Both the position numbers and the translations under genes were made by a program. A DNA stretch of 64,000 bases from Lentisphaerota bacterium (GTDB lineage: Bacteria > Verrucomicrobiota > Kiritimatiellia > UBA8416 > JABMPJ01). Below the pieces are notes generated by a model that did no database searches, was not told the origin of the DNA, and saw only the letters and a list, made by a program, of their open reading frames with translations. Every line of letters begins with the position of its first letter. The first letter of the stretch is position 1. The stretch lies in assembly GCA_013203785.1 (NCBI GenBank), contig JABMPJ010000161.1:10449-74448 (forward strand), given 5' to 3'. This document shows, piece after piece, positions 1 to 62,279 of this stretch.

Positions 1-364
1 GCATGAGCGGGGCGACCGAGACATCGAAGGCACCGCCACTCATTTCAGCGTAGTGGATGGAGAGTCGAAGCATATCTCGCGTGGTGGTCGAGAGGGCCAC
101 CGGCTCACCTCCCGCCGCATCGTTGAGCTGAGAAATCTCACTAGCGTCGACATACGTACTGAGCCGCTGATTAAGGTCTTCAAAGACCTCTTTTGTCTGC
201 CGGACACAGGCCGCCAACTCCTCGGCACGACCGGCGCCCACACTGACAGAGGCAAAGGTGCCCATGGTGCTCCAGTGCTCAGAGAGAGGCGGGGAAGCGC
301 GACGACAGGAGAGGGAGAGGACGCAGAGGAGCACAATGGCCACTGAGCATCGAACATCGACCAT
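1..364 (-). CDS. apbE: ApbE-family FAD:protein FMN transferase, 5' part only; gene runs off the left window edge
   Basis: Not in the ORF track (no in-window stop). Minus strand from ATG at 364 (alternative ATG at 445, directly after the upstream TAG) reads MVDVRCSVAIVLLCVLSLSC (signal/lipoprotein-like) ...HWSTMGTFASVSVGAGRAEELAACVRQTKEVFEDLNQRLSTYVDASEISQLNDAAGGEPVALSTTTRDMLRLSIHYAEMSGGAFDVSVAPLM. The MGT..., S.ISqLN and GAFDvsvaPL blocks are the hallmark ApbE motifs. Same frame as the upstream ORF, separated by one stop. Confidence 0.55.
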   Translation of the reverse strand, partial: MVDVRCSVAIVLLCVLSLSCRRASPPLSEHWSTMGTFASVSVGAGRAEELAACVRQTKEVFEDLNQRLSTYVDASEISQLNDAAGGEPVALSTTTRDMLRLSIHYAEMSGGAFDVSVAPLM

Positions 365-445
365 CGAACGCCCAACATTGAAGTGGACCCGGAGAGACCG
401 TGAATCGATAGAGCGCCCCCTTTTCAATGTTCGATGTTCCTCCAT

Positions 446-1540
446 CTACGCTCCCGGTCTTGGGCCATACGCAGCGATGAACGCCTCATATCCGTCAGCC
501 GTTTGCGGCGTGGGATACGCTCCATGGAGGCGGTCGAAACAGTTGCGCGAGCGACGTGAGTCGCCCCGTGCATGGAGCATGAGGGTGGCACCGACGAGAA
601 AATTGGCATACGACTCCCTCACCCCAACACCCTCGTAGCGTGAGAGGGCATCTTCGTAGGCGCGCATCACGCCGGGCAAGAGGCGCGCGTCGGCCAGCAT
701 CGTGATGGTATCCCCGGGGCCCCAGGTGAGACGGCCCTTGACAAAGAGTTCAGCCATGGACTGGTAGATCATCCGACTGCACGGCAGATAGCCGTCGCTT
801 CCCGCGACCTGCAAACCGCGGTAAGCCCAGTAAACCGCATGCGACTGTGGCACGCGCCAGTCCAGCGGCCCATAGAGCGCATCGACCACCTGCATCCGGG
901 CGGGATCGAGCCCAAGGGCCTGGTGCAGCGCGAGGGTGCGGGCGGGGTCGCGGCTCAGCTCATCGTAGTCGGGCCGCCCGTTTCGTCCCAGCTGGTCTGC
1001 AACCAGATGGGCCCACTGAATCTTGTAGTACGCATGCAGCCGGTCCGACTCCCCACCCAGCTTGTGCTGAAAGAGCCAACCCAGCTCTTGGTAGATGCGC
1101 GGGTCGGAGGGGTTGTAACGCACGCCCTCGTCGCGCAACAGGTGAAGCCCCTGCTGAACCCAGCGCCAGCGATCTTCGGGCAGCGGCATCATGACGCTGA
1201 TGTTGTAGGCCAGATTCCAGGCGTGGAAGACCCATATGTCGGAGGTGTGCGGCTCCAGCTTAGTGATCCAGTCGGCCAACTGGACGAGCTCAAGAAAGCG
1301 CCCCTCGTCCTGAAGGTAGGAGGCGCGCAGCCAAAGCGCATCCGCGATGATACCGCGGAATCCACCCAAGACGACCGTCGTGAAGACCACCACCGGTGGC
1401 GCGCCGCTGAGCCCCTCCTGATCGGATACGGACGGCATACGCGCCTTGAGGAGCGGTTTGTGAAAGACCCCTGCTAAGACCAGCAGCGCAACGCCTGCGG
1501 ACAGAATCACCACCTCAGATCTATTCCCGTCTCTGCTCAT
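446..1540 (-). CDS. hypothetical membrane-anchored protein (N-terminal TM helix, large soluble domain)
   Basis: ORF 446..1651. Preferred start is internal M at 1540 (MSRDGNRSEVVILSAGVALLVLAGVF = single TM anchor). No family recognised. Confidence 0.45.
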   Translation of the reverse strand: MSRDGNRSEVVILSAGVALLVLAGVFHKPLLKARMPSVSDQEGLSGAPPVVVFTTVVLGGFRGIIADALWLRASYLQDEGRFLELVQLADWITKLEPHTSDIWVFHAWNLAYNISVMMPLPEDRWRWVQQGLHLLRDEGVRYNPSDPRIYQELGWLFQHKLGGESDRLHAYYKIQWAHLVADQLGRNGRPDYDELSRDPARTLALHQALGLDPARMQVVDALYGPLDWRVPQSHAVYWAYRGLQVAGSDGYLPCSRMIYQSMAELFVKGRLTWGPGDTITMLADARLLPGVMRAYEDALSRYEGVGVRESYANFLVGATLMLHARGDSRRSRNCFDRLHGAYPTPQTADGYEAFIAAYGPRPGA

Positions 1541-1577
1541 ATTGACATACAGCCTGTCCCTGACTCTTGACCACTGA

Positions 1578-2843
1578 TCACACGGGGAGCGCCCATTCGC
1601 GTCGGCGCAGCACAAGGCAGCCGGCCAGACAGAGTACACCGCCGTACCCAAGGATCAGGACGGCCGCGGCAGCCTGCACCTCGCGCCACGGGATGCGACG
1701 TCCCTCGGCGAGGCGCAGCCCCACGCGGTAGCGCAAGGTCGGTGCCATGGCCATGCGCACGGTTTCAGAGGCATGCGCCCCCACTCGCTCAATCCATGAA
1801 GGCCCCTCCTCTCCGCCGTGGTGGTGCTCGTGAGCCACGCGCTCGGGTGCGGTCGAAAACACAAAGAACTGTGCCAGGAGCGTGGCGACCACAAGCGCAA
1901 GCGACGCGAAGACCGCTACAGGAAACGTGAAGAGCGTTCCCGCCGTCACGCCCAAGGCCGCCAGTAGCGCCACGTGGCAGAATAGCAGCAACAACGCTCG
2001 CATCAGGTTAGCGCCAAAACCGCCCGTGGGAACCAGCAGCTCTACCTCGCGCTCAGGGTGAAACGTGGCCCCTGTCACTTGGCCAGCCGCATTGGGACGT
2101 TCTTCAAACAGAAGCTCGACCGGTTCGCCTCCGCGCAGCTGTGCGAGAGGGATCTTGAGCCGATTGACGCCATCCTGGTTGGCCGTGCAGTCTGACTCGA
2201 ACCAGATACGGCCATCCTCCCCCCGCAGCATCCAGTGCCCGATAACGGGGGGTTGGTCGCGCCAAGCAGACAGGAAGCGGTAGCTTAGCGTCGCCATGCC
2301 GGTGGCCCCTTCCGGTAACTCAGGGCAGGATAGACTCCAGCGGACGGGACGGTCACCAGGCGGTCCCAGGCGTCGGCCTTCCACCCACTCACGCGCCACG
2401 AGAACCTCTTCACGCACGGCGATGCCGTCTGGGGTACCGGCTACCGTACGGTGCTCTCCTATCCGCGCGGCCGCCCACATGAAGAGGCCCGCAGCGACGA
2501 GTTGCAACAGGACTACGGCGAGAATACCCATCCACTTTCCAAGCCACAGCTCAATGACGCGGACAGGCTTAACGACCACAAGGTGGATCCTACGGCTCTC
2601 AATCTCGGTCGCGAGTGAGCCGCAGGCCAGCCAGAGGGTCGCCATGCCCAGCACACTACCGACCGCACCCATGGCATAGGAGAGGAGTACCTGCAATCGG
2701 CCGGAGGCCGTGCCATCGCCCTGGATCGTTAGGGTGAATCCCACCAGCACCGTGAGCAGCAAACAGAAGAGGCTCACCACAAAGCGCGAGCGCACGGCCT
2801 GCCGAAACATCAGTCCGGCGATCCCAAAAATGCGATTATACAC
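1578..2843 (-). CDS. ABC-2 type transporter permease-like membrane protein (multi-TM with large extracytoplasmic loop)
   Basis: 421 aa. Hydrophobic N-terminal and C-terminal TM segments flank a soluble insert. It lies directly downstream of an ABC ATPase. Confidence 0.45.
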   Translation of the reverse strand: MYNRIFGIAGLMFRQAVRSRFVVSLFCLLLTVLVGFTLTIQGDGTASGRLQVLLSYAMGAVGSVLGMATLWLACGSLATEIESRRIHLVVVKPVRVIELWLGKWMGILAVVLLQLVAAGLFMWAAARIGEHRTVAGTPDGIAVREEVLVAREWVEGRRLGPPGDRPVRWSLSCPELPEGATGMATLSYRFLSAWRDQPPVIGHWMLRGEDGRIWFESDCTANQDGVNRLKIPLAQLRGGEPVELLFEERPNAAGQVTGATFHPEREVELLVPTGGFGANLMRALLLLFCHVALLAALGVTAGTLFTFPVAVFASLALVVATLLAQFFVFSTAPERVAHEHHHGGEEGPSWIERVGAHASETVRMAMAPTLRYRVGLRLAEGRRIPWREVQAAAAVLILGYGGVLCLAGCLVLRRREWALPV

Positions 2844-3783: not shown

Positions 3784-4767
3784 CTACACATCCTTCTGTC
3801 GAAACAGGACTGTACCGAGACAGAGCAGCGCACTCGCATAGACCAGGGCATAGAGGGCCGCCAATCCCATGTAGCCGCCGGTGATAGATCCACCCGCATT
3901 AAGCTGATCACACACCCAGAAATGCTGCCAATTGGGTACCGCCGAATAGAGCAGACCGGCCCAGAGCGACTCGGTGGCGTGGAGGCCAAAGAGGTAGTCA
4001 CTCATCATACCCAATGCGAACACCGCGCTACAGCTCGCCAGCGTGGGGACCATTCCCACGACGGTGGAGAGTGTCATGGCCAGGGAGGACATCACCACCA
4101 AGCCCAGCGTGATTAGAACGGAAACCGGTACGAGGCGCCAATCGAGCCTCGTCGCAAAAGGAGCCCACTGACCGGTCCGATCAAAACAGGACGCCAGTAC
4201 AACGCACAGAAGCAGGCCGCCCAGAAGCGCCGTCGTGGTGACCGAGCCAAAGGGGCGCTGCCGCTTGTAGTTCACGACAGCACCCACCACGCATGCCGCG
4301 ACCATGACGGCAATCAGGAGGGCACCGGTCTGGCCATCGGTCACAAAGCCCGCTACACCGTCACGGTTAACAAAACGCTCGGCCACCCGTTCGGCGAGCA
4401 GCGTCGTGAGTCCGGCACAGAGGGAAAAGACCCCGACCACACCGACCACACCAACGAATTTGGAGAGAAAGAAGCAGTCGCGACTGACCGGCTTACTGAG
4501 TACGACCAGCGCTGTACCGCTCTCGAGCTCGCGTGACAGCGCGGTGGTTGCGGCATAGCCCGCGACAAAGACACCGAAGACCGCGTGCAGCGCAAAGGCG
4601 CTGTCCCGGACCAGTTTTCCATCTTCGCCGAAGCGATGCAGGATCAGGAACGGAAGCAGCGCCGTTAACGTGCTAGAGACCAGAATCAGGAGTAGACAGA
4701 CGGGCTGTCGCAGGGCTTCCAACGCTGTGAGCCCTGCCAACGCGACCGCCTGTCTCAAGCGGAACAT
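3784..4767 (-). CDS. ABC-2 type transporter permease
   Basis: 327 aa polytopic membrane protein immediately upstream of the ABC ATPase. Its start overlaps the pnp stop by 1 nt. Confidence 0.55.
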   Translation of the reverse strand: MFRLRQAVALAGLTALEALRQPVCLLLILVSSTLTALLPFLILHRFGEDGKLVRDSAFALHAVFGVFVAGYAATTALSRELESGTALVVLSKPVSRDCFFLSKFVGVVGVVGVFSLCAGLTTLLAERVAERFVNRDGVAGFVTDGQTGALLIAVMVAACVVGAVVNYKRQRPFGSVTTTALLGGLLLCVVLASCFDRTGQWAPFATRLDWRLVPVSVLITLGLVVMSSLAMTLSTVVGMVPTLASCSAVFALGMMSDYLFGLHATESLWAGLLYSAVPNWQHFWVCDQLNAGGSITGGYMGLAALYALVYASALLCLGTVLFRQKDV

Positions 4768-6878
4768 CAGCCCTCGCTCGCGACCTGTTCGTCCTTATCG
4801 CGCATGGCCTCTTTGCGGCTGAGTTTGATGCGGCCGCGGTCGTCAACACCGACGCACTTAACCCACATCTGATCACCCACCTTGCAGATATCCTCGACGC
4901 TACCAACGCGGAAGTCGGCCAGCTCGCTGATATGCACCAGACCATCCATCCCGGGAAAGATTTCGACGAAGGCACCGAATTCTTTCACGCCCGATACGCG
5001 GCCGTCGTAGATGGTCCCAACCTCAGCTTCGGCCGTAACCATCTCCACTTCGCGAACCGCTTGCTTCAGGGCTTCGGCGTTGGTGGCGAAGATGCTGACG
5101 GTGCCGTCCTCTTCGATATCGATCTGGGCTCCGGTCAGCTCGGTGATACGGCGAATATTCTTGCCCCCCGGGCCGATCAGCTCGCCAATCTTATCAACCG
5201 GAATGGTGACCTGCGAGATGCGCGGCGCGTGCTCACTCATCTCTTCACGGGGAGCCGAAATGACCCCCTCCATGAACTCGATCAGCTCGATGCGGGTCTT
5301 GCGAGCCAGTGCGAAGGCACCTTCGACGAGGTCCCAGCGCAAGCCGGGAATCTTCATATCAACCTGAAACCCGGTGATACCATCACGGGTACCGGCCACT
5401 TTGAAGTCCATGTCACCACAGTGATCCTCTGAGCCGATGATATCGGTCACCAGCTCGGCCCTATCGCCATCGGAGAAGAGACCAATCGAGATGCCCGCTA
5501 CGGGCCGCTTGATGGGCACGCCGGCATCCATCAGGGTCAGCGTACCGACACAGACGCTCGCCATTGAGGAGGAGCCGTTCGAGCCCATGATGTCGGACAC
5601 CAGACGGACCGTGTAGGGGTAATCATCCGGAAGCACATGCGCAAGTGAGCGCTCCGTCAGTGCCCCGTGGCCGATCTCGCGCCGACCGGTGAATCCCAGA
5701 CGTCCGGCTTCGCCAACGCTGTAGGGCGGGAAGTTGTAGTGCACCATGAAGCTCTTCGAAGCGATGCCGCCGGTGATCGCGTCGGTGCGCTGAATGTCGG
5801 ACTTGGTGCCCAGTGTCAGACTGCCCAATGCCTGCGTCTCGCCGCGGGAGAAGAGAGCCGAACCGTGCGTACGGGGCAGGACCGATACTTCTGCTTCGAG
5901 TGAACGGAGCTGATCGAAGCCGCGGCCATCCATGCGCTTGCCCTCGTTGAGGGCGAGGTCACGCACCGTCTCAATCTCGAAATCGTCGAATGTGGCGCGA
6001 TACTCCTCGGTCGTCATCTCCGGGAACTTCGCGAGCATGCCGGCTTCGAGGTCGGTCTTAACCGCGCTGACTTTGTCCTGGCGATCAAGCTTATCGGCGA
6101 TGCCAAGGGCCTCGGTCATGGCGGTGCGGCCCAGTTCACGCATGGCGACCAGCATGGGGGTCTCGGTTTCGGCGACCTCGATCACCTTCTCGGGCAGTCC
6201 GAGCTTGCTGCGTAGTTCGATCTGGGCAGCAATGATCTTCTCACAGGCGACCTGACCAAATCTCATGGCCGCGACAAGATCGGCTTCGCTGGCTTCTTTG
6301 CAGTCACCCTCAATCATCATGGGCAGCTCTTGCTTGCCGCAGTAGACGAGGTCTATATCACTCTTGGCGCGCTCCTCGTGGGTCGGATTGATGATGAACT
6401 CACCATCCACGCGACCAACGCGTACCCCAGCGATCGGGCCCATGAACGGAATGTCGGAGAGCGTCAGCGAAGCGCTCGATGCAACAATGCTGAGCATATC
6501 GGAATCATTCACCCCGTCTGCGGAGAGCAGCATGTTGTTGATCTGTACATCGTTGTGATAGCCCTTGGGAAAGAGAGGGCGAATCGGGCGGTCGGTTATA
6601 CGTGAGGTCAGAATCTCTTTCTCGGCCGGACGCGTCTCGCGCTTGAAGAAACCACCGGGAAAGCGGCCAGCGGCATAGAATTTCTCACGGTACTCGACCT
6701 GAAGAGGGAAGTAGTCGATACCTTCGCGCGGCTTGCTGCTGCACGTGACGGCAGAAAACAGGATTGTGTCGGCTAGGCGAACGGTGACGGCACCGGCGGC
6801 CTGATGGGCCATACGGCCGGTTTCGATGGTCAGGGTCTTACCTCCGATATCGACGGAGACGGACTGGATGTTACTCAT
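4767..6878 (-). CDS. pnp: polynucleotide phosphorylase / polyadenylase
   Basis: 703 aa. Starts [31 protein letters not shown]. Two RNase PH domains, then KH ([12 protein letters not shown]) and S1 C-terminal domains. Confidence 0.96.
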
Positions 6879-11756: not shown

Positions 11757-13268
11757 TCAGGCTTTCTCTTCTTTATCGTCGGACGCGGCCACTTCTTCGG
11801 CCGCCTCCGCCTCCGCAGGTGTCACGTCACCGGTAGCCTCATCCGGGATCGCGGCCTCTTCGAGTGGGGACTCTTCAACAGGCGTCGTTTCCGCTTCGGC
11901 TTCGGTTGTCGGTTCCGCTTCGGCTTCCGCCTCCACCTCGACGATCGCCTCAGGCAGGGCCTCGGCTTCCGCGTGGGCATCGACCTCAGACGCGGCCTCG
12001 GCCTCAGTGTCAGCCGCGGCACTGACAGGCTTAACCCCCATCGCGGCATCGTGGATGGTCTGGGCCACATCGAGCTCCAATCCGGTCATCTCGGCGAGCT
12101 CACTGACTTCGGCTGCCAGAATACCATCCACAGTCAGGAATCCGACGGTCACGAGGGCCTGAGCATTCACGGGCCCGATACCCTCTACCACAGCCAGGGC
12201 CTCGACGGCCTCGGCCAGCTGCTTCTCAAAGTCGGCCTCCTGCTCATCTTTCTGGATATCAACCTTCAGGCCAAGCAGTTTGGCGGTCAAGCGGACGTTC
12301 TGGCCACGCTTGCCTATGGCCAGCGAGAGCTGGTCAGCATCGGCCACGACGTGCACCAGGCCGGGATCATTCTCATCGATCGTCACCTTGGCCAATTTGG
12401 CCGGTGAGAGGGCGTTGGCCACGTACGTGCGCGTGTCATCACTCCACCGAATAATATCGATTTTCTCGCCGGAGAGTTCGCGAACGATGTTTTTGACGCG
12501 CATGCCGCGCATGCCAACGCACGCGCCGACCGGATCGACCTTCTCGTCGTGCGACAGGACCGCGATCTTGGTGCGGTAGCCCGCCTCACGAGCGATGCCC
12601 TTGATTTCCACAATGCCGTCGTTGATCTCAGAGACCTCGAGCTCAAAGAGCGTCCGCACAAAATTGGGATGACTGCGCGACAAAACCACGCCGGGCCCCG
12701 CTGATTCGCTACGCACATCCAGCACGTAGGCGCGAATGCGGTCGCCGATCTGATACTCCTCGGTGGGGACACGCTCGTTGGACGGTAGCAACGCCTCAGC
12801 GCGCCCCAAATCGATCACGATGTCGCTACGGTTGAACTGGCGCACCGACCCGCTCACGATATCACCCACACGGTCCTTATATTCTTCGTAGACGACATCC
12901 TTTTCGGCCTGCCGGATGCGCTGGATAATGGCCTGTTTGGCTGTTTGGGCGGCGATGCGACCAAAATCGCGAGGGGTCACCTCCACCTCGGTGAACTCAC
13001 CGAGCTCAGCCGCGGGATCAATCTCCAGCGCGTCGGCGAAAAGGACCTCTTCGTCCGCATGGGTCACATCTTCAACGACCAGCTTCTTGGCAAACGCCTT
13101 GATATCGTAGGTCTTGCGATCAATCTCTATACGGACATCCTTGTTTCGCGCCAAATTCTTGCGGGATGCCGACTGGAGCGCGTATTCGACCGCCTGAATA
13201 AGGATTTCGCGATCAAGACCACGCTCCTTCTCCATGTAGTTAAGAATCGCCTGCAGTTCGTTATTCAT
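11757..13268 (-). CDS. nusA: transcription termination/antitermination factor NusA (with long acidic C-terminal tail)
   Basis: 503 aa. Starts [29 protein letters not shown]1, KH1/KH2 and acidic-repeat domains. The E/A/T-rich C-terminal extension is unusual but conserved in order. Confidence 0.95.
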
Positions 13269-13364: not shown

Positions 13365-13466
13365 CACCTGACCACTATGTAAAGGGCAACCGGTACTGTA
13401 TGCGCCGCCCCCGGAATCGTCAAGCCCCCATCTGGAAAGCTTTCTACGCACTACGCCTCAAGCAGG

Positions 13467-13567
13467 AGTCAGAATTCAGAAGTCAGAAGTCAGTGCCCCA
13501 TTCTTCGTGGGGTCAAAACGTCCAAGTGACTCTCATTCTGAATTCTGACTCCTGAATTCTGACTTCC
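13467..13567. repeat. compound inverted/tandem repeat: three CAGAAKT heptads, a CCCCA..TGGGG mini-hairpin and an inverted copy (TTCTGAATTCTGACTCC x2)
   Basis: GAGTCAGAATTCAGAAGTCAGAAGTCAGTG ... GTGACTCTCATTCTGAATTCTGACTCCTGAATTCTGACTTCC. A 17-nt arm is exactly complementary. It lies between the divergently arranged nusA operon and the thioredoxin-like gene. Confidence 0.5.
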
Positions 13568-25248: not shown

Positions 25249-25845
25249 ATGGAACCGACCCCTACAGGCTTGGACCCGACGCCCGCGCGCAAAAATCCAC
25301 CAGCCACGCGCAAGCAGCGCCTGCTCCTGCACATCTGCAGTGCACTCTGCCCACCCGAGGCGATCGAATGCCTGCGCGCTGACTACGAGATCACCGGCTT
25401 CTTCTCCAACTCGAACATCGCCCCGGAACCCGAGTATTGGCGACGCCTGACCGAGGCCCACCGCCTGGCTACGGAACTCGGGATACCCTTTATTATGGAC
25501 ACCTACGACCATGCCGAGTGGTTGGAAAGCGTGGCCGGACTGGAATCAGAGCCGGAAGGAGGGGCGCGCTGCGAGCGCTGCTTCGCCTTCAGCCTCTCGC
25601 ACGCCGCCGCCTATGCCGCCGCCAACGGCTTCGACAACTACACCACCACCCTCTCCATCGGCCCTGACAAGGATAGCACCACGATCTTTCGAGTGGGGCG
25701 CGAGCAGGGCCCTTTCCTTGAAGTGAACCTCAAGAAGAAGGACGGCTTCCGCCGCAGCCTCGAGTTAAGCCGCACCTATGATCTCTACCGCGAGGACTAC
25801 TGCGGCTGTGAGTTCAGCCGCTCCACTCCCGCCCCCTCGGCGTGA
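25249..25845 (+). CDS. queH: epoxyqueuosine reductase QueH (DUF208 family), variant N-terminal Cys motif
   Basis: ORF 25189..25845; preferred start ATG 25249. LLLHICSALCPPE (canonical LLLHxCCAPCS) and C-terminal YDLYREDYCGCEFS (canonical YCGC). Confidence 0.7.
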   Translation: MEPTPTGLDPTPARKNPPATRKQRLLLHICSALCPPEAIECLRADYEITGFFSNSNIAPEPEYWRRLTEAHRLATELGIPFIMDTYDHAEWLESVAGLESEPEGGARCERCFAFSLSHAAAYAAANGFDNYTTTLSIGPDKDSTTIFRVGREQGPFLEVNLKKKDGFRRSLELSRTYDLYREDYCGCEFSRSTPAPSA

Positions 25846-25917
25846 GAGCCTCTCGCTCCTGCATCCCGAAGACCGCCCTGCACATGGGATCGGGCGCATC
25901 TGCGATTTGGTGCATAG

Positions 25918-25988
25918 GTCCCAATCGTAATCGTAATCCTGCTCGTAATCATAATCGGATTACGATTACGAGCAGGATTACGATTGGG
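25918..25988. repeat. ~71-bp imperfect palindromic element built from CGTAATC heptads (copy A)
   Basis: TCCCAATCGTAATCGTAATCCTGCTCGTAATCATAATC|GGATTACGATTACGAGCAGGATTACGATTGGGA. A near-identical element is at 38486..38556. The ORF-track translations NRNRNPARN.RITITSRITI on both strands are artefacts of this repeat. Confidence 0.8.
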
Positions 25989-26081
25989 ACAGATACAACA
26001 GAACGTCAGATAGGCCCTGAAAGCAACAGCAGCCCTATTTTTGGAGTCGCTGTGATCGAGTCCCTGTGTCAGGCTAGAGAG

Positions 26082-26408
26082 ATGAAGAAGACCTTTGAGT
26101 TGATTCACCCGAAAATCAAGTACCCCAGACTTGTCGAGGCGGTCCGGCGAGATGTTAAGAAATATGTAAAGCGCGAGTGCCGCAAGACGCTCCCGGAGGG
26201 ATTTGATTTCTGGGCTTTCGACTGCAAATTTGGTCCGACCGAAGCGGATGCCAAGGTGATCCATGTGGCCGAGTTCAGCCAGTATATCACTACCGCCGAG
26301 AAGGAAGAGCTGACCTCTTTCTATATTGAGATCCTGGCGAAGCCAGCGAAACGCCAGAAGAAACAGGGAGCCGTAGCCAAGGGCGGGCAGGCAATGCCGG
26401 AGGCCTAG
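26082..26408 (+). CDS. small basic hypothetical protein (108 aa)
   Basis: ORF 25842..26408; upstream portion is repeat-derived. Real start likely ATG 26082 (MKKTFELIHPKIKYPRLVEAVRRDVKKYVKRECRKTL...). Lys/Arg-rich, slightly lower GC. Confidence 0.45.
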   Translation: MKKTFELIHPKIKYPRLVEAVRRDVKKYVKRECRKTLPEGFDFWAFDCKFGPTEADAKVIHVAEFSQYITTAEKEELTSFYIEILAKPAKRQKKQGAVAKGGQAMPEA

Positions 26409-35558: not shown

Positions 35559-36521
35559 TTATATGACGGCGGCAATATCGCGCGTGATGCGCGGTGACCG
35601 AGAGAGAGCGCCTTCAAGCAGCGAAAGCATGCAGAGCTTGCTCAACGACCGTGCGATGCCGCCGGATCGTTCGTGAAGCAGGGCCAGGGCATCGTCATCA
35701 AAGAGCGACTCAGAGCGGCCTGCGACGGAAAGGCGATAACTGACATAGTGCGCCACCTCCTCAAGCGTGAGTGGCTGCAGTTGGCACTGCAGGTACATGC
35801 GGTTGCGCAGGGAGTCGTAGCTGGGATTCTCCAGCCGCTTGGCAAAGCGGGACTCGCCAAAGAGCAGGCAGGTCACCAGCTTGCACTCCGGAATCTCAAT
35901 ATTGCTCACCGTCCGCAGGATGTGCAGGCTGTCGGAGGTGAGGAAGTGACATTCGTCGATGACGATGACGAGCCGCCGCCCCTCCTGATAGAGATCGATT
36001 ACGTGGTTGGTCAGGAGACGGACGAGATCCTGCGTGCGCACGATACCGGTCGGCAGGGCGATATTCAACTCCGAGAGAATCGTGCGCAACAACGCCGTCT
36101 TGCTCATCCCCGGGGTGACCAGGACCAACACGGCCTGATGCGTCTCCTGATCGATATTCTGGAGCAGAATCTGTGAGACGAGCGTTTTGCCCGCCCCGCT
36201 CTCGCCGGTCACCATGCCGAGTGAGACATTGTAGCGGACCGCCATGAGCATGCGTGTGATGACATCGCGATGACTCTCGATCCGGAAGAAATAGGCCGGG
36301 TTGATGCTATCGGCAAAAGGATTGTCCCGCATGCCATAGAACCCCACAAAATCGGCTTCGCGCGGTATGTCGAAGTGGACTTGTGACTGTGAGATATCTG
36401 ACTGAGGTGTGGCCTCGACGAGCGCCATAAGCGGATTATCATGCTGCCCGGCCGTGTCGGCGGCCGCATCGTCTTCATCTATCTGGGGCGCGATCAGCGC
36501 TTCAAGCGTTTGCGTATTCAT
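35559..36521 (-). CDS. ExeA/GspA-like AAA+ ATPase (AAA_22/AAA_16 type), cytoplasmic
   Basis: 320 aa. [12 protein letters not shown] Walker [12 protein letters not shown] Walker B, N-terminal [18 protein letters not shown] typical of ExeA-like proteins. No peptidoglycan-binding C-terminal domain. Confidence 0.65.
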
Positions 36522-37482: not shown

Positions 37483-37794
37483 GTGGTTTCTCTGAAACAA
37501 CGCGATGACGCGTCCTCTGACGCGCCTGACACTGCCGACGGGGGGGGTGAGGCGCGGGTTCTGGCAGTCGAGATTAAGTTTCTGTGCCCGACCTGCGACT
37601 CAAAGCTGCGCACCGAGGTGCAGCATGCAGGCCGCGAAGTCCCGTGCTCGGTCTGTCGCAGCCTGCTGACCGTACCCTCACCCTTTGCGGGAGTGAGCTA
37701 CCCACCCCCTGGCAGCACTCGCCCCCCTGAACGCGATGAGTTGGCATCGGTGCTCACGACGGACGAGGTCGCCTTTCTTACAGGGAATATGTGA
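37483..37794 (+). CDS. zinc-ribbon protein (MJ0042-type finger; CPTC...CSVC)
   Basis: 103 aa, GTG start. FLCPTCDSKLRTEVQHAGREVPCSVCRSLLTVP. Start site uncertain. Confidence 0.45.
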   Translation: MVSLKQRDDASSDAPDTADGGGEARVLAVEIKFLCPTCDSKLRTEVQHAGREVPCSVCRSLLTVPSPFAGVSYPPPGSTRPPERDELASVLTTDEVAFLTGNM

Positions 37795-38357
37795 TGTCGG
37801 GTGTAAGCGGAACGACCAAGATGGATTGCCCGGCATGCGGCGTAACGATCACCGTGCCTATGGGCCCCAGCAACCGCACGTTCCAATGCCCGCGCTGCCT
37901 GAATGTCGTTGATCCCGTTGAGGCACCACCAGTTACGGAGGCACCAGCGGTAGTGGTGCCACCCCCACGCCAGGTTGAGCTCGCCCTCCCCGCACCGCCC
38001 CCGCAGGCTGCGGCCCCGCTGAAGCTCTCACCTCCCCCCCCAAAGCTGGAACCATTGCGGGAGACCCAGGCACTCGGGCAGGATCAGGGGCGGGAGCTGG
38101 ATAAAGCGCTGCGCGAACTCTCGCTGGAACGGGACAGCCTTCTGCGCCAAGTGGAAGACGCTCAAACAACCATCCGAGAGTTTACGCCCATTATCCAGCG
38201 CGTGGGTGAGTTGGAGTCCCGTATCTGGGAGCTGGGCACCACCTACCTCAAATGCCTGCAGCATCTCGGCGAGCTCGAAGCCGAAAACGAACGCCTCAGA
38301 CGCGCCCGCGCGCCCAAAGTCGATGCCCTCCCGGTGCGCTCGCGCGCGACGGCCTGA
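37791..38357 (+). CDS. zinc-ribbon - Pro-rich linker - coiled-coil protein
   Basis: 188 aa. MDCPACGVTITVP...FQCPRCLNVV zinc ribbon. PPVTEAPAVVVPPPR...PPPPK linker. C-terminal heptad-rich ELDKALRELSLERDSLLRQVEDAQTT...LEAENERLRR. ATGTGATG overlap with the upstream gene. Confidence 0.5.
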   Translation: MMSGVSGTTKMDCPACGVTITVPMGPSNRTFQCPRCLNVVDPVEAPPVTEAPAVVVPPPRQVELALPAPPPQAAAPLKLSPPPPKLEPLRETQALGQDQGRELDKALRELSLERDSLLRQVEDAQTTIREFTPIIQRVGELESRIWELGTTYLKCLQHLGELEAENERLRRARAPKVDALPVRSRATA

Positions 38358-38485
38358 GGGTCGCCGCATCCCGATTCCGTGACTCCATCTCCCTCTACAG
38401 CCCACAGCCTGGTCGTCTGCCATGGCCGAAGCTTAGGGAGTATCTGTGAGTTGTCATGGACCAGTGGATTCGAAGACATCACCGT

Positions 38486-38556
38486 TCTTCGTAATCGTAA
38501 TCTTGCTCGTAATCGTAATCCGAGTACGATTGCGGGCAGGATTACGATTACGGAAA
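38486..38556. repeat. ~71-bp palindromic CGTAATC-heptad element (copy B)
   Basis: TTCTTCGTAATCGTAATCTTGCTCGTAATCGTAATCCG|AGTACGATTGCGGGCAGGATTACGATTACGGAAAA. Arm mismatches are T/C transitions, which would still pair as G-U in RNA. About 85% identical to copy A. Confidence 0.8.
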
Positions 38557-38806
38557 ATACCAGTACAACAAACCGGAGAAGTGCCGTGCAGACTCCTCAT
38601 CCCCCAATTCCGCTTGAGCTTCATCTCGCTTCTGTGATAGGCCTGTCCGGTCGGTGAAGATCGACACTGTCTCCGAGCCATCCCCCCCTAAGGCTAGAGT
38701 GCTACGGGTTGATAGGCCGGTATAGGGCGTGGGCGGAAACGACCACGCCTCCCGGGGGGTGGCATACAATAGGTGTGCCATACCACCCATTGGAAAGGAG
38801 ACGGCA

Positions 38807-40021
38807 ATGATGACACCACTTGAGGCGTGGCAGAGCATTGGTCTGCACACGCAGCCGCTACCTGCAACCCATCGATCCCTCGCGTCGGCCACGGGATATG
38901 TCCTGTCCGAAGCGGTGGTCGCAGATCGCGACGTACCACCCGTCAACCGCGCCGCCATGGACGGCTACGCCGTGCGGGCCGAGGACCTCGCGTCCTGCCC
39001 TGCCACACTCACCCTTATAGGCGAAGTGGCCGCCGGATCCGATGCCACTCCCCTCGTCAGTCAGGGCGAATGCGTGGCGATCTACACCGGTGCCAATGTC
39101 CCCCCAGGTGCCGATAGCGTGATCATGGTTGAAGAGACGGAAGCGGCGGGCACAACGATCCGCTTTCTCAAACCGCCCCGCTCCGGGCAGCATATCTTCC
39201 GCCAGGGCGAGAATGCCCAGCGGGGCGAGATCCTATTGGAAGCCGGGGTCGTTCTGGGCGCAGCAGAAGTCGGCGTATGCGCCGCGGTGGGTGTGGATCG
39301 CCCCTCTGTTTTCGGACGGCCGCGCGTGGCGATTCTCTCTACCGGGGCCGAACTGTTGGATGCCAGCGAGGAGGTCGAAGCCCACCAGCTGCGTAACTCG
39401 AACGGGCCCATGCTCGTAGCAGGCCTAACGGCTGCCGGATTCGAGGTGACCCACTGCCGCGCCGTGGATGACGATGAGGAGCGGATCGTTCAAGGCATAC
39501 GCGATCTGCTCTCGACATGCGACTGCCTCATTCTGACCGGAGGTGTTTCCGTCGGCAAGTATGACCTGGTCCCACAGGCCATTCAACAGGCCGGGGGCAC
39601 GGTACATTTCCACGGCGTCGCGATCAAACCGGGAAAGCCCCAACTCTTTGCGACCACCGACGCGGGCAAGATCCTTTATGGTCTGCCCGGCAACCCGCTC
39701 AGCTCGATGGTCGGTTTACAGGAGTTTATTCTGCCCGCCCTGCGCCGCATGGCCGGCACCCCGGTCGAGCGCTGCCGGCCAATGCTGAAGGTCCACCTCG
39801 GAGCAGACATCGGCGGCAAGACCGGCCGACTGCGCCACAACATGGTCTCACTGGTGTCGGACGAGACGTGGGGCATGGTGGCTATGCCGGTCACCCACAG
39901 CGGCTCGGCCGATCTGATTGCCGGGGCCCGCGCCGATGGCACCGTCATCATACCGGCAGACGTCGCCAGTATACCGGCTGGCAAGATGGTGCATTTTTGT
40001 CCGTGGAGAACGATCGGATGA
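38807..40021 (+). CDS. moeA: molybdopterin molybdenumtransferase MoeA
   Basis: ORF from 38729; preferred ATG 38807 after AAAGGAG RBS. MoeA N-terminal, MoCF-binding GGVSVGKYD and C-terminal domains. Confidence 0.9.
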   Translation: MMTPLEAWQSIGLHTQPLPATHRSLASATGYVLSEAVVADRDVPPVNRAAMDGYAVRAEDLASCPATLTLIGEVAAGSDATPLVSQGECVAIYTGANVPPGADSVIMVEETEAAGTTIRFLKPPRSGQHIFRQGENAQRGEILLEAGVVLGAAEVGVCAAVGVDRPSVFGRPRVAILSTGAELLDASEEVEAHQLRNSNGPMLVAGLTAAGFEVTHCRAVDDDEERIVQGIRDLLSTCDCLILTGGVSVGKYDLVPQAIQQAGGTVHFHGVAIKPGKPQLFATTDAGKILYGLPGNPLSSMVGLQEFILPALRRMAGTPVERCRPMLKVHLGADIGGKTGRLRHNMVSLVSDETWGMVAMPVTHSGSADLIAGARADGTVIIPADVASIPAGKMVHFCPWRTIG

Positions 40022-43827: not shown

Positions 43828-44886
43828 TCATATGTTTGACCTCTTCTCGCCTTTGCTCAGTCGTAGCGCCACCTTGTCGAAATCCGACTCCTTGTGGTCT
43901 TCTGCGACAATACATCGACGATTGAACGTCTCGTACTCGCCCTCGGCTCGCGCAACGGCCATCTCATGGGATATTTTTCCCGCGTGCGTCAGGATGTCTC
44001 GTTCATTCAAGTTTAGAAATGCATCCAGCTTGGCACTCCAGTCCGTCATGTGCATCGGGACACGCCGCATCGCTCGCCCCTCGGCAAAAATCAGGTATTG
44101 CTCGACCAGGTTGTTCAGCGCCAGAAGTTCCTCCTCGGCCAAGTAGTTCTTTGCGATCGTGACGTCTGCCTTACGCAGCTTGTTGCCGCGCCAATTTGTC
44201 AGCCCCATGTTCTTCTTCTCGGCATCGACACGGTCGTGGATGATTTCGGCAGCCGTCATGCCGGTTATGGCCCAGTGCATCTTGTTTTGCACGGTCCTGA
44301 AGAAGTCGATGCTGATTTCCTGCGTGGGATCATAGTCGACGCTCGTGGCGTAAATATCAGTGATCTTCTGGTAGAAGCGACGTTCAGACGTCCGTATATC
44401 CTGAATTCGCCGCAGGAGCTCTTCAAAGTAGTCGAACGGCTGGTCTGGATTCTTGAGTCGCTCATCGTCCAAAAGGAATCCCTTGACCAGATACTCACCG
44501 AGCCGTTGCGTGGCCCACTGGCGGAAACGCGTAGCCACATGGGATTTCACGCGATAACCCACGGAGATGATCATATCCAGATTGTAGTAATCCAATTCCC
44601 GCTGAACATTCCTTGCCCCCTCCTGGCGAACCGTTAAGGATTTCTTAACAGTTGCCTCCGGAGCCAACTCACCCTCCTCATAGACATTCCGGATGTGCAT
44701 GCTGATGTTAGGAACCGTGGTCTGAAACAGCTCTGCCATAAGTTGCTGCGTCAGCCAGACGGTCTCGTTCTCCAGGCGCACCTCGATACGGGGTGTACCG
44801 TCCGCATCCTGGTAGACCAGCACCTCGCCGTGGGATTCGGCCTTCTCGGGGCTGACAGAATCATATTTTGCTGGCTTGTTGCTCAC
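43828..44886 (-). CDS. rhuM: RhuM-family virulence/Fic-DOC-associated protein
   Basis: 352 aa. EVLVYQDADGTPRIEVRLENETVWLTQQLMAELFQ...YYNLDMIISVGYRVKSHVATRFRQWATQRL is the canonical RhuM N-terminal block. Confidence 0.8.
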   Translation of the reverse strand: MSNKPAKYDSVSPEKAESHGEVLVYQDADGTPRIEVRLENETVWLTQQLMAELFQTTVPNISMHIRNVYEEGELAPEATVKKSLTVRQEGARNVQRELDYYNLDMIISVGYRVKSHVATRFRQWATQRLGEYLVKGFLLDDERLKNPDQPFDYFEELLRRIQDIRTSERRFYQKITDIYATSVDYDPTQEISIDFFRTVQNKMHWAITGMTAAEIIHDRVDAEKKNMGLTNWRGNKLRKADVTIAKNYLAEEELLALNNLVEQYLIFAEGRAMRRVPMHMTDWSAKLDAFLNLNERDILTHAGKISHEMAVARAEGEYETFNRRCIVAEDHKESDFDKVALRLSKGEKRSNI

Positions 44887-45320
44887 ACCTTCACCTCCAC
44901 CGTGATGCTTGCATCTAAGCCAAATGTCTGTCCCACCTTCGCGCAGGCCGTGTATGTGCCCTTCAACGGGTCCTGTACAAGCACATCGGCAGGAATGCCC
45001 AATCCGTTGTAAAGCTTGCGAATCATAGCCAAACTCAGTGGGCGTTTCCGGTTCAATACCTCTGACACCTTGCTCTTGCTTCCGATATGGGGAACAAGAT
45101 CAGCCTGCTTCAATCCCTGCTGTTCCATGCGGAACTTGAGGGCGTCAATGGGGTCTGGCATGGCAATTGGATACTGCGCAGCCTCGAACTCCTCGACGAG
45201 ATGCAGAAGCAATTCAAGCTCATCGCCCTCGGCGGTGCCAGGGCTTGCATTGAATATCGCATCGATGCGCGCCAGTGCCGCTTCGTGGTCTGCTTTCGTT
45301 CTGATGAGTCGAACATTCAT
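44883..45320 (-). CDS. HigA-family HTH (XRE-type) antitoxin-like protein, no cognate HigB detected
   Basis: 145 aa. C-terminal GLKQADLVPHIGSKSKVSEVLNRKRPLSLAMIRKLYNGLGIPADVL matches the HigA block (GLT.SDL..IGSKS.VS.VL.GKR.LTL....KLA..FGISP). 4-nt overlap with the downstream rhuM. Confidence 0.6.
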   Translation of the reverse strand: MNVRLIRTKADHEAALARIDAIFNASPGTAEGDELELLLHLVEEFEAAQYPIAMPDPIDALKFRMEQQGLKQADLVPHIGSKSKVSEVLNRKRPLSLAMIRKLYNGLGIPADVLVQDPLKGTYTACAKVGQTFGLDASITVEVKV

Positions 45321-57638: not shown

Positions 57639-58628
57639 GTGACAATGCCAGGCAAACCATACCAGTCCAAACTGGCCCCGCATGAGGCCGAGATCTTCGA
57701 ACTGCGGGACAAGGGCGTTACATACCGAGCCATTGCGGAGCAGCTCAGTCTACGCCATGCCCTGAATGTCACCCACAATGCCGTCTTCTCGTTCCTGAAG
57801 ACCCGGGGCCCCACCCGCGGTGGTGGCCGGTTGTTCTACGAGGGATTCTCCCCAGATATCCGCGAGCAACTCCTCAAGCGAATCACGGCCGAGTGGACGC
57901 ACGACTCAACGGCGATTGAAGGCAATACACTTACGCTCGGCGAAACCATAAAGGTATTGGAGCTTGGCCTGACCGTCAGCGGCAAGCCACTGAAGGATCA
58001 CCAGGAGGTCTATGGTCATGCCCACGCCATTGACCTGATCTATGCCATGATTGCCCGAGCTGAGATTAGCGAAGACGATCTTTGCGATCTGCACCGTTCG
58101 ATCATGCATCAGGCTCCAGTCGATGCCATGAACCCCATCGGGGCCTGGAAGCGGGACTACAATGGAACCACGGGGGCCAGAGATGGGAAAAGCATCTACA
58201 TGGAATACGCAGAACCGGCGGCTATTCCCCGACTCATGAAACGCTGGCTCGGGGATTTCAACGGTACTGAAAAGTGTACGGGGCGGCCGGAGCAAGCCAT
58301 TGCAGCATATGTTCGTGCACACATGATTTTTGTCCGTATCCATCCCTTCTTCGATGGCAACGGCCGCATGGCACGTCTACTCGCCAACATCCCCGTTCTA
58401 CGTGGCGGCTTCCCGCCCGTGGTGGTTCCCGCAGAGCGTCGGTCCGACTACATCGGATTGCTGTGGGAGTATCAGAATGACGCCGGCACGATTCGCCCCG
58501 GCTCACGCCTCATGCCTCCGCACCCCGCCATCAGACAGATGGAAAAACTGCTCAAGAACGAATGGACCAAAACCGTCTCGCTCGTAGAGGAAGCCCTTAG
58601 GCGGCAGGCGGCAAGAAGCCACAAGTAG
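57639..58628 (+). CDS. fic: Fic-family protein (class II-like, N-terminal inhibitory [ST]xxxE[GN] motif) with N-terminal HTH-like region
   Basis: 329 aa. HPFFDGNGRMARLL Fic motif. STAIEGN inhibitory-helix motif. N-terminal AEIFELRDKGVTYRAIAEQLSL. Confidence 0.85.
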   Translation: MTMPGKPYQSKLAPHEAEIFELRDKGVTYRAIAEQLSLRHALNVTHNAVFSFLKTRGPTRGGGRLFYEGFSPDIREQLLKRITAEWTHDSTAIEGNTLTLGETIKVLELGLTVSGKPLKDHQEVYGHAHAIDLIYAMIARAEISEDDLCDLHRSIMHQAPVDAMNPIGAWKRDYNGTTGARDGKSIYMEYAEPAAIPRLMKRWLGDFNGTEKCTGRPEQAIAAYVRAHMIFVRIHPFFDGNGRMARLLANIPVLRGGFPPVVVPAERRSDYIGLLWEYQNDAGTIRPGSRLMPPHPAIRQMEKLLKNEWTKTVSLVEEALRRQAARSHK

Positions 58629-59684: not shown

Positions 59685-61190
59685 CTAGGCGGAACGAATT
59701 GCCGCCTCGATGCGCGTCACCTCCATATCAGACAGGAACTTGAAATGGCTGGTGCGCCTGTTGGCCGACAGGTGTCCATTGTTTTGCAGGCAGAATCGAA
59801 TGAACAGGTCGATCTGTCTGTCCGGCATGTCTACAACAGCCTGAATGGCCTGCTTGGTATGGTCGTAGTTGGCCAGGAATGCCAGTTCTTCTGCCAGTTC
59901 CGTATCGATGGTCTGTTCGATGAACCGGAATAGCGCCTCCGCTTGCGGCGTCATGTCGGTGTACTTGTACCAGATTGCCGTATCGTTCTGCACCGTCATC
60001 CGCCCCATCTCATCCAGTGAGTATTCCACAAGCATCATCAGAGGCTTGGAGAAGGCCTCCAGTGATGCGTCGTAGTCTGCTATGTTCTGCAGCATCGATG
60101 CAGATACGGGGAAAATGAAGCCAGCCGGTGTGAATCCGTGACGGGCAAGTATGTTGTGGATCAGGAAACGGTGAATACGTCCGTTCCCATCCTCGAACGG
60201 ATGCAGGAAAACGAATCCGTACGCGATGGCGGCGGCATGAATGACGGAGAACACCTCTCCTGTCTCCATCCTCTCGTGGGATGCGAGCAGCCCTTCCATA
60301 AGTTCAGTTACGTCCTGGGGTCGCGGACCGGCGAAATGGACCTTCTCCTTTTGCCAGGCTACGGTCTCGCCAACATAGTTCTGACTACCACGATAATCCG
60401 TATCTTGGAAGCGGGGGTCCACAGTACGGTTCTGTAGATCGATCAGGCGCCCCTTCTCGCAGAAATCCTCTTTTTCGGCCAAGTGGAGCAGAGAAACGAA
60501 GCGTTCCGTTCGGGTCGAGGTCGGCTTGATGTGCTCGATCTCGAAGGACGATTTCGTTTCCTTCTTGTAGAGGTAGCTCATGGCCCGTTTCAGTAATTCA
60601 GGGGGATACTTGGCAACAATATCCCGGCACCGTTCAGGAAGATTTGCTTCTTCGAAGGATCGCAATACTGCCGTACGGCGAATTGTGGGACAGAACCTGG
60701 CGTCCCCGAGCAGGTTGTCATTGATACGCTGGCGACGCACCCGACGGGGTTCGGCCATCGTGTAGTATTCGTCTGGATCGAGCAGATCGATGTATCCCCC
60801 GGTCCCAAGGTCAGCCAGGGGAAGCTCCACACCGGTGAGCATTTCGTATAGGAACCACACTCGACGGGTATATTTCCCCCTCGGCGCAGATGCGACATAC
60901 TGTTGGATTTCATCCTGAGGAGCCACCTTGAACACGCTGACAAGGATGGCCAGATTTGTCCCATCGTACTTGAGCGCAAATTGCAGATGGTCACCGAGCG
61001 TGTCCCCGGGCCAATACCGGGCTGGGTAGACTTCTTCGGTTACGCCTGCGGTCGTATCGACTCGATGTGTGTTTCCTGTGGCAACAAGAGATCGATGCCA
61101 GTTCGGTAGCACGTCTAACCCGAATTTCTCGATCAGTGCGCCGTACCCAGTCACCTTCATCCCCGTCGCATCTAAAGAGTGCTCATTCAT
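59685..61190 (-). CDS. large Fic-family protein
   Basis: 501 aa. HPFEDGNGRIHRFLIHNILARHGF Fic motif, preceded by a long N-terminal domain. Confidence 0.8.
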   Translation of the reverse strand: MNEHSLDATGMKVTGYGALIEKFGLDVLPNWHRSLVATGNTHRVDTTAGVTEEVYPARYWPGDTLGDHLQFALKYDGTNLAILVSVFKVAPQDEIQQYVASAPRGKYTRRVWFLYEMLTGVELPLADLGTGGYIDLLDPDEYYTMAEPRRVRRQRINDNLLGDARFCPTIRRTAVLRSFEEANLPERCRDIVAKYPPELLKRAMSYLYKKETKSSFEIEHIKPTSTRTERFVSLLHLAEKEDFCEKGRLIDLQNRTVDPRFQDTDYRGSQNYVGETVAWQKEKVHFAGPRPQDVTELMEGLLASHERMETGEVFSVIHAAAIAYGFVFLHPFEDGNGRIHRFLIHNILARHGFTPAGFIFPVSASMLQNIADYDASLEAFSKPLMMLVEYSLDEMGRMTVQNDTAIWYKYTDMTPQAEALFRFIEQTIDTELAEELAFLANYDHTKQAIQAVVDMPDRQIDLFIRFCLQNNGHLSANRRTSHFKFLSDMEVTRIEAAIRSA

Positions 61191-61748: not shown

Positions 61749-62279
61749 CTATGCCGCCTTCAGCTGCTTTTCGACCTCCCACCGGGACAAACGGAGCCAA
61801 CGGTTGATGTTGACGGCCGCCCCTTGAAAGTAGTTGGACAGAGTGGTCTTGGCCAGCCCTCGATATCGTGTGCGCCGACCTCCCCCGCGCGTGAACTCAC
61901 TGATGGTTCCCTCGATGGCATTGCGTCGATGCATCTTCAGCTTGAACTCATCGGTCTTCATATCACGCCGTCGTTGCTGCAAGAGGTCGTGATGCCGGCC
62001 GACCGATATATGCCGCCTTCCATCTTTACGCCTTGTGCACTGCTTCTGAAGCTCGCAGTCATCGCAGAGACCGGCCCACTCAAAGCGGTAGTAAGTGGAC
62101 GCATTGTAGCGGTCGTTGATCAGACTGATATGTTGAGACGTGACCCTTCCAGCCCTCTTCCAGCCCCCTTCCAGCCTCTCGGCCACCCAATCCGGGATGA
62201 TATCGGCCACTCTTGAGGCGGGATCGAAATGGGGGGCGATATGTGGCGGAATGCGCACCATGCCCGGCACACACGCCAT
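61749..62279 (-). pseudogene. C-terminal fragment of an IS5/IS1182-family DDE transposase (5' part missing)
   Basis: 176 aa. ...HRRNAIEGTISEFTRGGGRRTRYRGLAKTTLSNYFQGAAVNINRWL is the conserved C-terminal block of IS5-group transposases. N-terminal catalytic region is absent and vapC sits where it should be. Confidence 0.6.

Follow-up and report, generated by a model that had tools for sequence, protein, structure and literature searches.

The stretch of Lentisphaerota DNA described here, referred to as the window (64,000 nt), contains two intergenic palindromes, copy A and copy B, whose arms are built of hexamer repeats. Copy B, the main subject of this analysis, lies 129 nt past a plus-strand open reading frame (ORF 37791-38357) and about 100 nt ahead of a molybdenum cofactor (Moco) riboswitch, which heads a moeA-moaA-MFS_MOT1-moaC-MOSC operon. 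The ORF encodes a protein with an N-terminus resembling a zinc ribbon, a tail predicted as coiled coil, and Pfam matches below threshold only. Copy A is found 76 nt past queH (stop at 25845) and 94 nt ahead of a DUF6172 gene (start at 26082), also on the plus strand and followed by mrp. A preliminary description of this DNA had reported two copies about 12.5 kb apart, each between plus-strand genes; both points were confirmed, the exact distance being 12,564 nt, with A upstream.

Structure and setting of the two copies

In the window, CGTAATCGTAATC has six matches with up to one mismatch, where 0.03 would be expected, and all six fall inside A and B. The repeat unit had been described as a CGTAATC heptad. 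Consecutive CGTAATC matches begin 6 nt apart, so that the supposed heptads overlap by one base, and Tandem Repeats Finder assigns a period of 6 to positions 38489-38520, in the 5' arm of copy B: the actual unit is the hexamer CGTAAT. In register, copy B reads TT-CGTAAT-CGTAAT-CTTGCT-CGTAAT-CGTAAT-C / CGAGTAC-GATTGC-GGGCAG-GATTAC-GATTAC-GG, and copy A reads CCCAAT CGTAAT CGTAAT CCTGCT CGTAAT CATAAT C / G GATTAC GATTAC GAGCAG GATTAC GATTGG G.

Both elements fold on the plus strand far better than shuffled sequences (z = -10.0 for B and -10.4 for A). Copy B forms a 30-bp stem closed by a 7-nt loop (Table 1). Its stem includes four pairs between a T of the 5' arm and a G of the 3' arm (38489/38553, 38503/38539, 38507/38535 and 38510/38532), which are wobble pairs on the plus strand and C.A mismatches on the minus strand, the respective energies being -46.4 and -34.9 kcal/mol. 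The earlier statement that all arm mismatches in B are wobble-compatible T-versus-C differences is correct for these four, but a fifth difference is a transversion adjoining the loop: the innermost 3' unit is GAGTAC instead of GATTAC, and the loop is enlarged because of it. This description does not hold for copy A. The sole stem mismatch of A (25951 A / 25963 C) is A.C on the plus strand and G.U on the minus strand, the folding energy is -45.0 kcal/mol on the plus and -48.4 on the minus strand, an extra hexamer is bulged in the 5' arm, and the loop is 3 nt long. Differences between the two copies, formerly regarded as structure-preserving, turned out in the in-register comparison to be single-sided changes, none of them a double substitution from one Watson-Crick pair to another.

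Similarity extends beyond the hexamer core. A 93-nt inverted match (80%) links 25893-25985 to 38493-38585, and copy A can be read as 48-nt arms (25903-25950 / 25958-26005) with 75% complementarity. In a four-way alignment, the flanks of A and B are alike in either orientation for about 30 nt per side and are imperfectly palindromic, so each element is about 130 nt long. The flanks are only about 50-75% alike and the boundaries soft, and, as the whole element is a palindrome, inverted ends are a trivial consequence. The foot of B reads ...CCGTTCTT before the first CGTAAT and that of A ...GGTCCCAAT; the sequences on the 3' side are GGAAAATACCAG and GGGACAGATAC, respectively. The region of B is reproduced base for base in an independent Joint Genome Institute (JGI) assembly.

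No further copies were found in the window by short-word blastn with A and B. A CGTAATC pair at 51283/51301, inside a cytochrome gene, was rejected as a chance occurrence.

Table 1. Coordinates and sequence features of copies A and B and of the Moco riboswitch. Positions refer to the window, except in the last three lines, where they refer to comparison loci (L-numbers)
Feature	Position	Strand	Description and basis
Copy B, stretch as originally quoted	38486-38556		read from sequence
Copy B, 5' arm	38488..38517	+	TT + CGTAAT CGTAAT CTTGCT CGTAAT CGTA; C-N-T-N-N-T units; 30 paired positions from fold
Copy B, apical loop	38518..38524	+	ATCCGAG; minimum free energy structure and unit comparison
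Copy B, 3' arm	38525..38554	+	TAC GATTGC GGGCAG GATTAC GATTAC GGA; A-N-N-A-N-G units; holds the four T-pairing G
Copy B, approximate full extent	38450..38590	.	soft boundaries; inverted match and four-way alignment
Copy A, hairpin	25918-25990	.	28-nt arms, 96% complementary; sequence, folds
Copy A, approximate full extent	25893..26020	.	imperfect palindrome beyond hexamer core; extended fold, alignment
Moco riboswitch	38659-38816		60.9 bits; Rfam scan
Moco riboswitch, relative L171	1758-1918
Moco riboswitch, relative L172	2857-3010
Moco riboswitch, relative L174	2799-2950

When the window was scanned with Rfam 15 at gathering thresholds, only the Moco riboswitch passed and nothing was found on the hairpins; a scan of 38350-38850 at E <= 10 produced, for the hairpin, only miRNA-precursor look-alikes far below threshold. 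Both A and B lack a run of T directly after the hairpin, on the plus as on the minus strand, and no promoter or terminator was called on them in a consensus scan.

The spacers hosting A and B were compared with the corresponding loci of relatives. In genomes encoding QueH proteins 72-79% identical to that of the window, the order dnaG-cvpA-TPR-queH is kept as in the window, a GerE-type response-regulator gene follows 36-68 nt past queH or overlaps it, and no hairpin is present at the locus. When window 25845-26082 is compared with four of these loci (L163, L166, L168 and L169, from Lentisphaerae/Victivallales), synteny stops exactly at the queH stop, past which the window has hairpin A, DUF6172 and mrp instead of the response regulator. 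Copy A therefore sits at a synteny breakpoint.

Genomes with MoeA proteins 70-74% identical keep both the operon and its Moco riboswitch (Table 1). No hexamer array or hairpin is found in the 7-kb loci of these relatives (L171-L177), where the spacer between the upstream stop codon and the riboswitch measures 87-126 nt, versus 301 nt in the window; the difference of 175-214 nt is ample for an element of about 130 nt. As both hairpins are absent from the loci of the relatives, neither A nor B is a conserved part of its locus, and the hairpin of copy B does not belong to the Moco riboswitch or moeA leader. Among the loci examined, the MFS_MOT1 transporter gene occurs in the window only.

The possibility that the 12.5 kb between A and B form a repeat-bounded island was considered and rejected, since synteny does not resume. 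The AAA_22 gene at 35559-36521 is 26-30% identical to the gene of the relatives. Signs of accessory or mobile DNA are seen on the 3' side of the Moco operon, in the form of a RhuM-family gene, two Fic/DOC proteins and a DDE_Tnp_1_6 fragment (43828-45320, 57639-58628, 59685-61190 and 61749-62279). The latter, at 61749-62279, is the sole transposase-like match among the window ORFs scanned with Pfam, none of which matched a Y1/HUH transposase.

A family of hexamer-armed hairpins

One genome per species was scanned with the pattern CGTAATCGTAATC-N(0-30)-GATTACGATTACG, and at least 118 loci were obtained. They share the architecture 5'-(C-N-T-N-N-T)n / loop / (A-N-N-A-N-G)n-3', most commonly with CGTAAT/ATTACG units and with loops of 0 to about 30 nt. 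According to a hand count of record titles, about 72 loci are labelled as belonging to the Planctomycetes-Verrucomicrobia-Chlamydiae (PVC) group (Verrucomicrobiota, Planctomycetota, Lentisphaerae, Kiritimatiellia); other labels include Desulfobacterales, Nitrospirales, Haliangium (Myxococcota), Riflebacteria, Sumerlaeia, Hydrogenedentes and Acidobacteriota, and the CGTAAT-type unit is found in at least 10 phyla. The carriers include an isolate genome, that of Chthoniobacter flavus Ellin428. Not only the repeat unit and its polarity but also the linker unit CCTGCT/CTTGCT recurs in many unrelated assemblies. Among JGI metagenome sequences searched for relatives via MoeA, the best match was 39% identical and unfit for an orthologous comparison; two of the loci found in this way (L129 and L130) carry a family member.

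Within the hexamer, C at position 1 (95%), T at position 3 (94%) and T at position 6 (95%) are nearly invariant in flanking units, which are unconstrained by the search pattern. Positions 2, 4 and 5 vary, giving CGTAAT, CTTAAT, CCTAAT, CATAAT, CGTGCT, CGTGAT, CGTACT and CGTTCT. There are 176 matches to the forward pattern and none to the reverse, a count biased by the use of the forward pattern to fetch the loci; seven hairpins lacking the exact query are all of forward polarity as well.

In some hosts the family is clearly multi-copy. More than 20 loci come from a single metagenome-assembled genome (MAG), CAMBEJ01; their 30-nt loops are near-identical, their flanks are shared, and both orientations occur. 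CAZOZF01, CAMDCX01 and JBAXWO01 are multi-copy as well. In a PVC sub-family the hairpin has a conserved loop, CCTTTCCGGGGCAGTCG, and lies at the core of a longer element (about 210 nt), itself multi-copy, with inverted-repeat ends, CATCCCATAG/CTATGGGATG; a clear terminal inverted repeat is seen only here. The order is ATCACTGTCATCCCATAGGCA, about 85 nt of unique sequence, the hexamer hairpin and GGATTTCTATGGGATGCTAATGA. This element occurs in several PVC MAGs (L012, L019, L044, L049, L052, L058, L100, L101, L108, L115 and L007; an example lies at about 2020-2200 of L108), has no Rfam match, and is itself flanked by hexamer arrays in L012, L019 and L101. It could be a miniature inverted-repeat transposable element (MITE) or an undescribed structured RNA.

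In copies of the Desulfobacterota type the outer units are CGTGCT, and one arm contains a mini-hairpin (GCGAAGC or CCCGC-loop-GCGGG). In these and in 'Pseudomonadota'-type copies the arm is broken by the mini-hairpin (CAGCGAAGCGG with GCGAAGC, or TCCCGC-loop-GCGGGA), resulting in an asymmetric element, as observed in L001, L011, L035, L053, L060, L065, L097, L040, L080, L078 and others. In L071, identical copies at 5543-5598 and 5767-5822, with identical left flanks and 224 nt apart, lie at a contig end; either the element has been duplicated in tandem, or the assembly collapsed or broke at the repeat. Several more copies, in L007, L013 and L054, are likewise found at contig ends or no more than about 100 nt away. 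A group II intron (L079 1812-3744, minus strand; Rfam D1-D4, domain V/VI) is located about 110 nt from the hexamer hairpin at 3858-3904; the gap is too great to argue for targeting of a terminator motif, and this explanation was discarded.

No match to the family, in either polarity, was found in 2.9 million viral contigs, nor by blastn in phage and plasmid records, where the low-complexity filter of BLAST may mask repeats. In 18 related loci, the hairpins had no match in Rfam. When 653 ORFs from the 118 loci were clustered all against all, no recurrent neighbour gene emerged, and the one cluster overlapping the elements proved to be a spurious translation across the repeat (LRLRLR...). Literature searches with the repeat strings, in DNA and RNA spelling, and with keywords yielded no description of such elements.

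Hairpins with short tandem units are a general habit of these genomes, beyond the CGTAAT family. Two are found in the window. At 13463-13566, a tandem-heptamer hairpin (AGTCAGA/ATTCAGA; 27-nt arms, 93% complementary; 44-nt spacer with a small hairpin of its own; -56 to -59 kcal/mol, z about -7) occupies a divergent spacer, upstream of both nusA (11757-13268, minus strand) and a redoxin gene (plus strand). At 345-439, directly 3' of ORF 446-1651 (minus strand), three CATCGAA units face TTCAATGTTCGATGTTC; this hairpin folds at -40.1 kcal/mol on the minus strand, the sense strand of the ORF, and at -28.7 on the other, with a weak z of about -2. Many more intergenic hairpins have arms made of unrelated 7-9 nt tandem units, such as GGAACTCA, GGTGACAA, GGGGCCGA, AGTAATTA, CCCTTTGC and CACAGAGG (L007 5836, L017 2755, L036 3102 and 3705, L042 4118, L047 479, L053 5167, L055 3264 and 5919, L061 1551, L075 737, L081 2584 and 7265, L115 1112).

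The preliminary description had taken the pairing in B as a sign of selection on RNA structure, and proposed a covariation analysis across copies. This was performed on 117 distinct family members, at the three variable positions of the three outer hexamer units. Facing positions form 496 Watson-Crick cells, versus 381 +/- 16 after shuffling of partners, with a maximum of 435 in 1000 shuffles, and double changes affect whole units, as from CGTAAT/ATTACG to CGTGCT/AGCACG (AA/TT to GC/GC). The arms do not decay independently and are kept complementary, as expected under the earlier proposal, but a DNA-level process keeping the palindromes symmetric would yield an equal covariation: between the arms of a DNA palindrome, covariation alone is no evidence for a functional RNA.

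The signature of RNA selection, namely enrichment of wobble pairs and a link to the sense strand, is missing in the family. In the outer hexamer nearest the core, G.U accounts for 26 of 197 non-Watson-Crick cells (13%), close to the chance share of about 2 in 12, and strictly registered stems show 40 transition mismatches versus 107 others. An excess of at least two G.U on one strand is seen in 61 of 121 elements; where the flanking genes are in tandem, the strand rich in G.U is sense in 12 cases and antisense in 9. The difference between sense and antisense folding energies is about 0 for four flank sizes (p = 0.6-0.9), and neither mismatch counts nor main-stem G.U counts show a sense-strand bias.

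Placement is equally indifferent to transcription. Spacers hosting an element are tandem, convergent and divergent in 40, 18 and 18 cases, compared to 119, 55 and 64 among the spacers in these loci that lack an element (p = 0.85). In four of the divergent cases both flanking genes are supported by Pfam matches, as with citrate synthase and PLD in L004. In tandem contexts the distance to the upstream stop (110 nt) does not differ significantly from that to the downstream start (83 nt; p = 0.74). The terminator or processing step in the earlier proposal is not supported by these results, nor by copy A, the lack of a U-tract or the loci of relatives, while an incidental role as 3' stabiliser or RNase III site is still compatible with them.

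Interpretation

Copy B is probably a lineage-specific copy of a dispersed palindromic repeat built of hexamers, similar to repetitive extragenic palindromic (REP) sequences and MITEs. The arguments are its membership in the family, the multi-copy behaviour of the family elsewhere, the transcription-indifferent placement, the absence from relatives and the lack of terminator features. The elements would thus be extragenic palindromic repeats, a known kind, while the family itself appears to be undescribed in the searchable literature. The element seems to have been acquired within the Lentisphaerae lineage, in spacers tolerating insertion, and is probably mobile, or at least amplified in copy number. 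Symmetry of the arms could be kept at the DNA level, either by replication slippage of the units combined with hairpin-templated (quasipalindrome) correction, or by copying from a master element; slippage and quasipalindrome template switching are established mechanisms. Read-through from the upstream gene would produce a 30-bp RNA hairpin, able to block 3' exonucleases or to be cut by RNase III, and such effects would be an incidental side effect, of the sort described for E. coli REP sequences and for the Correia elements of Neisseria.

Several observations weigh against this interpretation. For the elements, the analysis revealed neither a transposase nor a target-site duplication (A and B being too diverged to define one) nor a clean empty site, so that mobility is inferred only. 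The 64 kb contain just two visible copies, which share 85% identity. The relatives are distant (70-79% identity of the flanking proteins) and their neighbouring genes also differ, and the placement tests have their main weakness in the crude longest-ORF gene calls on which they are based. Relative to copy A, the four T.G pairs of B derive from C to T changes in the 5' arm and A to G changes in the 3' arm, all with the same polarity, which would be the expected trace of purifying selection on a plus-strand hairpin, either RNA or single-stranded DNA. Finally, a neutral or purely structural palindrome fails to explain the near-invariance of positions 1, 3 and 6, which points to a sequence-specific reader.

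The polarity of the wobble pairs is the one good argument for a selected RNA element. Under this reading the transcript of ORF 37791-38357 would have in the hairpin a terminator independent of a U-tract, a 3' stabiliser or an RNase III processing site; the hairpin, with pairing maintained on the sense strand, would insulate the promoter of the Moco riboswitch from read-through. Through these pairs B folds better by 11.5 kcal/mol on the plus strand, and it lies 3' of a plus-strand stop codon, ahead of the riboswitch. The hairpin at 345-439 also folds better on the strand of its adjoining upstream gene, and the arms of the family covary. Copy A favours the antisense strand, however, and across the family the G.U-rich strand is unlinked to sense and wobble is not enriched; there is no U-tract, divergent spacers are used at the background rate, stop codons are not preferred, and relatives with the conserved riboswitch have no hairpin upstream of it. 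An RNA function under selection is judged unlikely.

The conserved positions and fixed polarity could also indicate an array of phased hexamers, recognized by a sequence-specific and possibly strand-specific protein that maintains the family. Candidates would be a transposase acting on single-stranded DNA hairpins, of the REP/RAYT (REP-associated tyrosine transposase) kind, a nucleoid protein, or a multimeric RNA-binding protein of repeated triplets. Such a reader would account for positions 2, 4 and 5 varying and covarying around invariant ones, for the polarity, also kept by the seven hairpins lacking the exact query, for the G.T asymmetry between strands in half of the elements, unrelated to transcription, and for the spread of the unit over phyla. 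No neighbour gene recurs around the 118 loci, though, the only transposase trace among the window ORFs scanned is the DDE fragment, the fixed positions could descend from a common ancestral unit, and a single reader cannot explain the unrelated 7-9 nt-unit hairpins of the same genomes. We consider the maintenance of the family by such a protein quite unlikely. As a tentative conjecture, phase, polarity and G.T asymmetry, which extend from PVC bacteria to Desulfobacterota, Nitrospirota and Myxococcota, might mark the substrate of a widely conserved enzyme acting on single-stranded hairpins, in a new REP/RAYT-like mobilisation or maintenance system, or else of a multimeric protein reading triplets in RNA; if so, the family would be a functional class rather than a set of inert repeats. 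The last alternative, in which A and B are local by-products, that is, two palindromes arisen independently by slippage and snap-back repair, or an assembly artefact, could draw on the other tandem-repeat hairpins of the window (345-439 and 13463-13566) and on the position of copy A at a synteny breakpoint. It is effectively refuted by the recurrence of unit, polarity and linker unit in unrelated assemblies, including that of C. flavus Ellin428, and by the exact match of the B region in the independent assembly, along with the flanks shared by A and B, and must be regarded as extremely improbable.

Annotation of hairpin B as a conserved terminator, or as a component of the Moco riboswitch, should be avoided. 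Long hairpins with hexamer arms in fixed phase are present in numerous uncultured lineages, of the PVC group and others, and their copies sometimes number dozens. MAG assemblies can be broken by these elements, several of which lie at or near contig ends; the elements also mark synteny breakpoints, and make 30-bp double-stranded RNA whenever transcribed. They may lead to the enzyme spreading them, and they provide a cautionary case for reading covariation in palindromes as RNA function.

Comparison with known systems

Like an intrinsic terminator, A and B are stable hairpins between same-strand genes. Such terminators have a short G+C-rich stem and a U-tract, are located downstream of genes and seldom occur in divergent spacers, whereas the hexamer element has an AU-rich 30-bp stem and no U-tract, and the family includes loops of up to about 30 nt and a background share of divergent spacers; copy B is not a canonical terminator.

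REP, BIME and REPIN sequences are, like the hexamer family, extragenic, multi-copy, imperfect palindromes which form stem-loops and occur in either orientation; A and B are both intergenic, and the further loci lie in other genomes. REPs are 20-40 nt long, with stems of 8-13 bp and a GTAG or CGTC tag left unpaired at one end, and include a super-family reported in the PVC group (PMC3733652). Stabilisation of mRNA 3' ends has been suggested as a side effect of REPs. The hexamer element differs in its 30-bp stem and core of about 70 nt, and carries no GTAG or CGTC tag at the foot of A or B. REP sequences are lineage-specific, whereas the hexamer unit is common to many phyla, and the RAYT gene of REP/REPIN systems, which is flanked by the repeats, has no counterpart among the window ORFs scanned or the recurrent neighbours sought in the 118 loci.

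Intergenic arrays of 6-7 nt units are known from distant lineages, as the heptanucleotide short tandemly repeated repetitive (STRR) sequences of cyanobacteria and the TAACTGA repeats of Beggiatoa and Thiomargarita, of no known function. These are direct arrays of other unit sequences, while the hexamer element has two opposed arrays that form a hairpin of fixed polarity.

MITEs in general are non-coding elements of 50-500 bp bounded by terminal inverted repeats, and leave target-site duplications; hairpin-forming ones include the Correia/NEMIS elements of Neisseria, ERIC, RUP/BOX and the cyanobacterial Nezha. The hexamer family differs from them in its microsatellite-like arms with a variable number of units, and in its distribution over many phyla as opposed to one genus; no target-site duplication or parent insertion sequence was identified. 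Transcribed Correia elements are RNase III substrates, and by analogy cleavage of the 30-bp hexamer hairpin by this enzyme is plausible. The two kinds of element agree in several respects: the hairpin-forming MITEs are 100-200 nt long and the whole element is one long hairpin, as in the hexamer element; they are present in many near-identical copies per genome, as the hexamer family is in hosts such as CAMBEJ01; and they have embedded terminal inverted repeats, as found in the PVC sub-family of about 210 nt.

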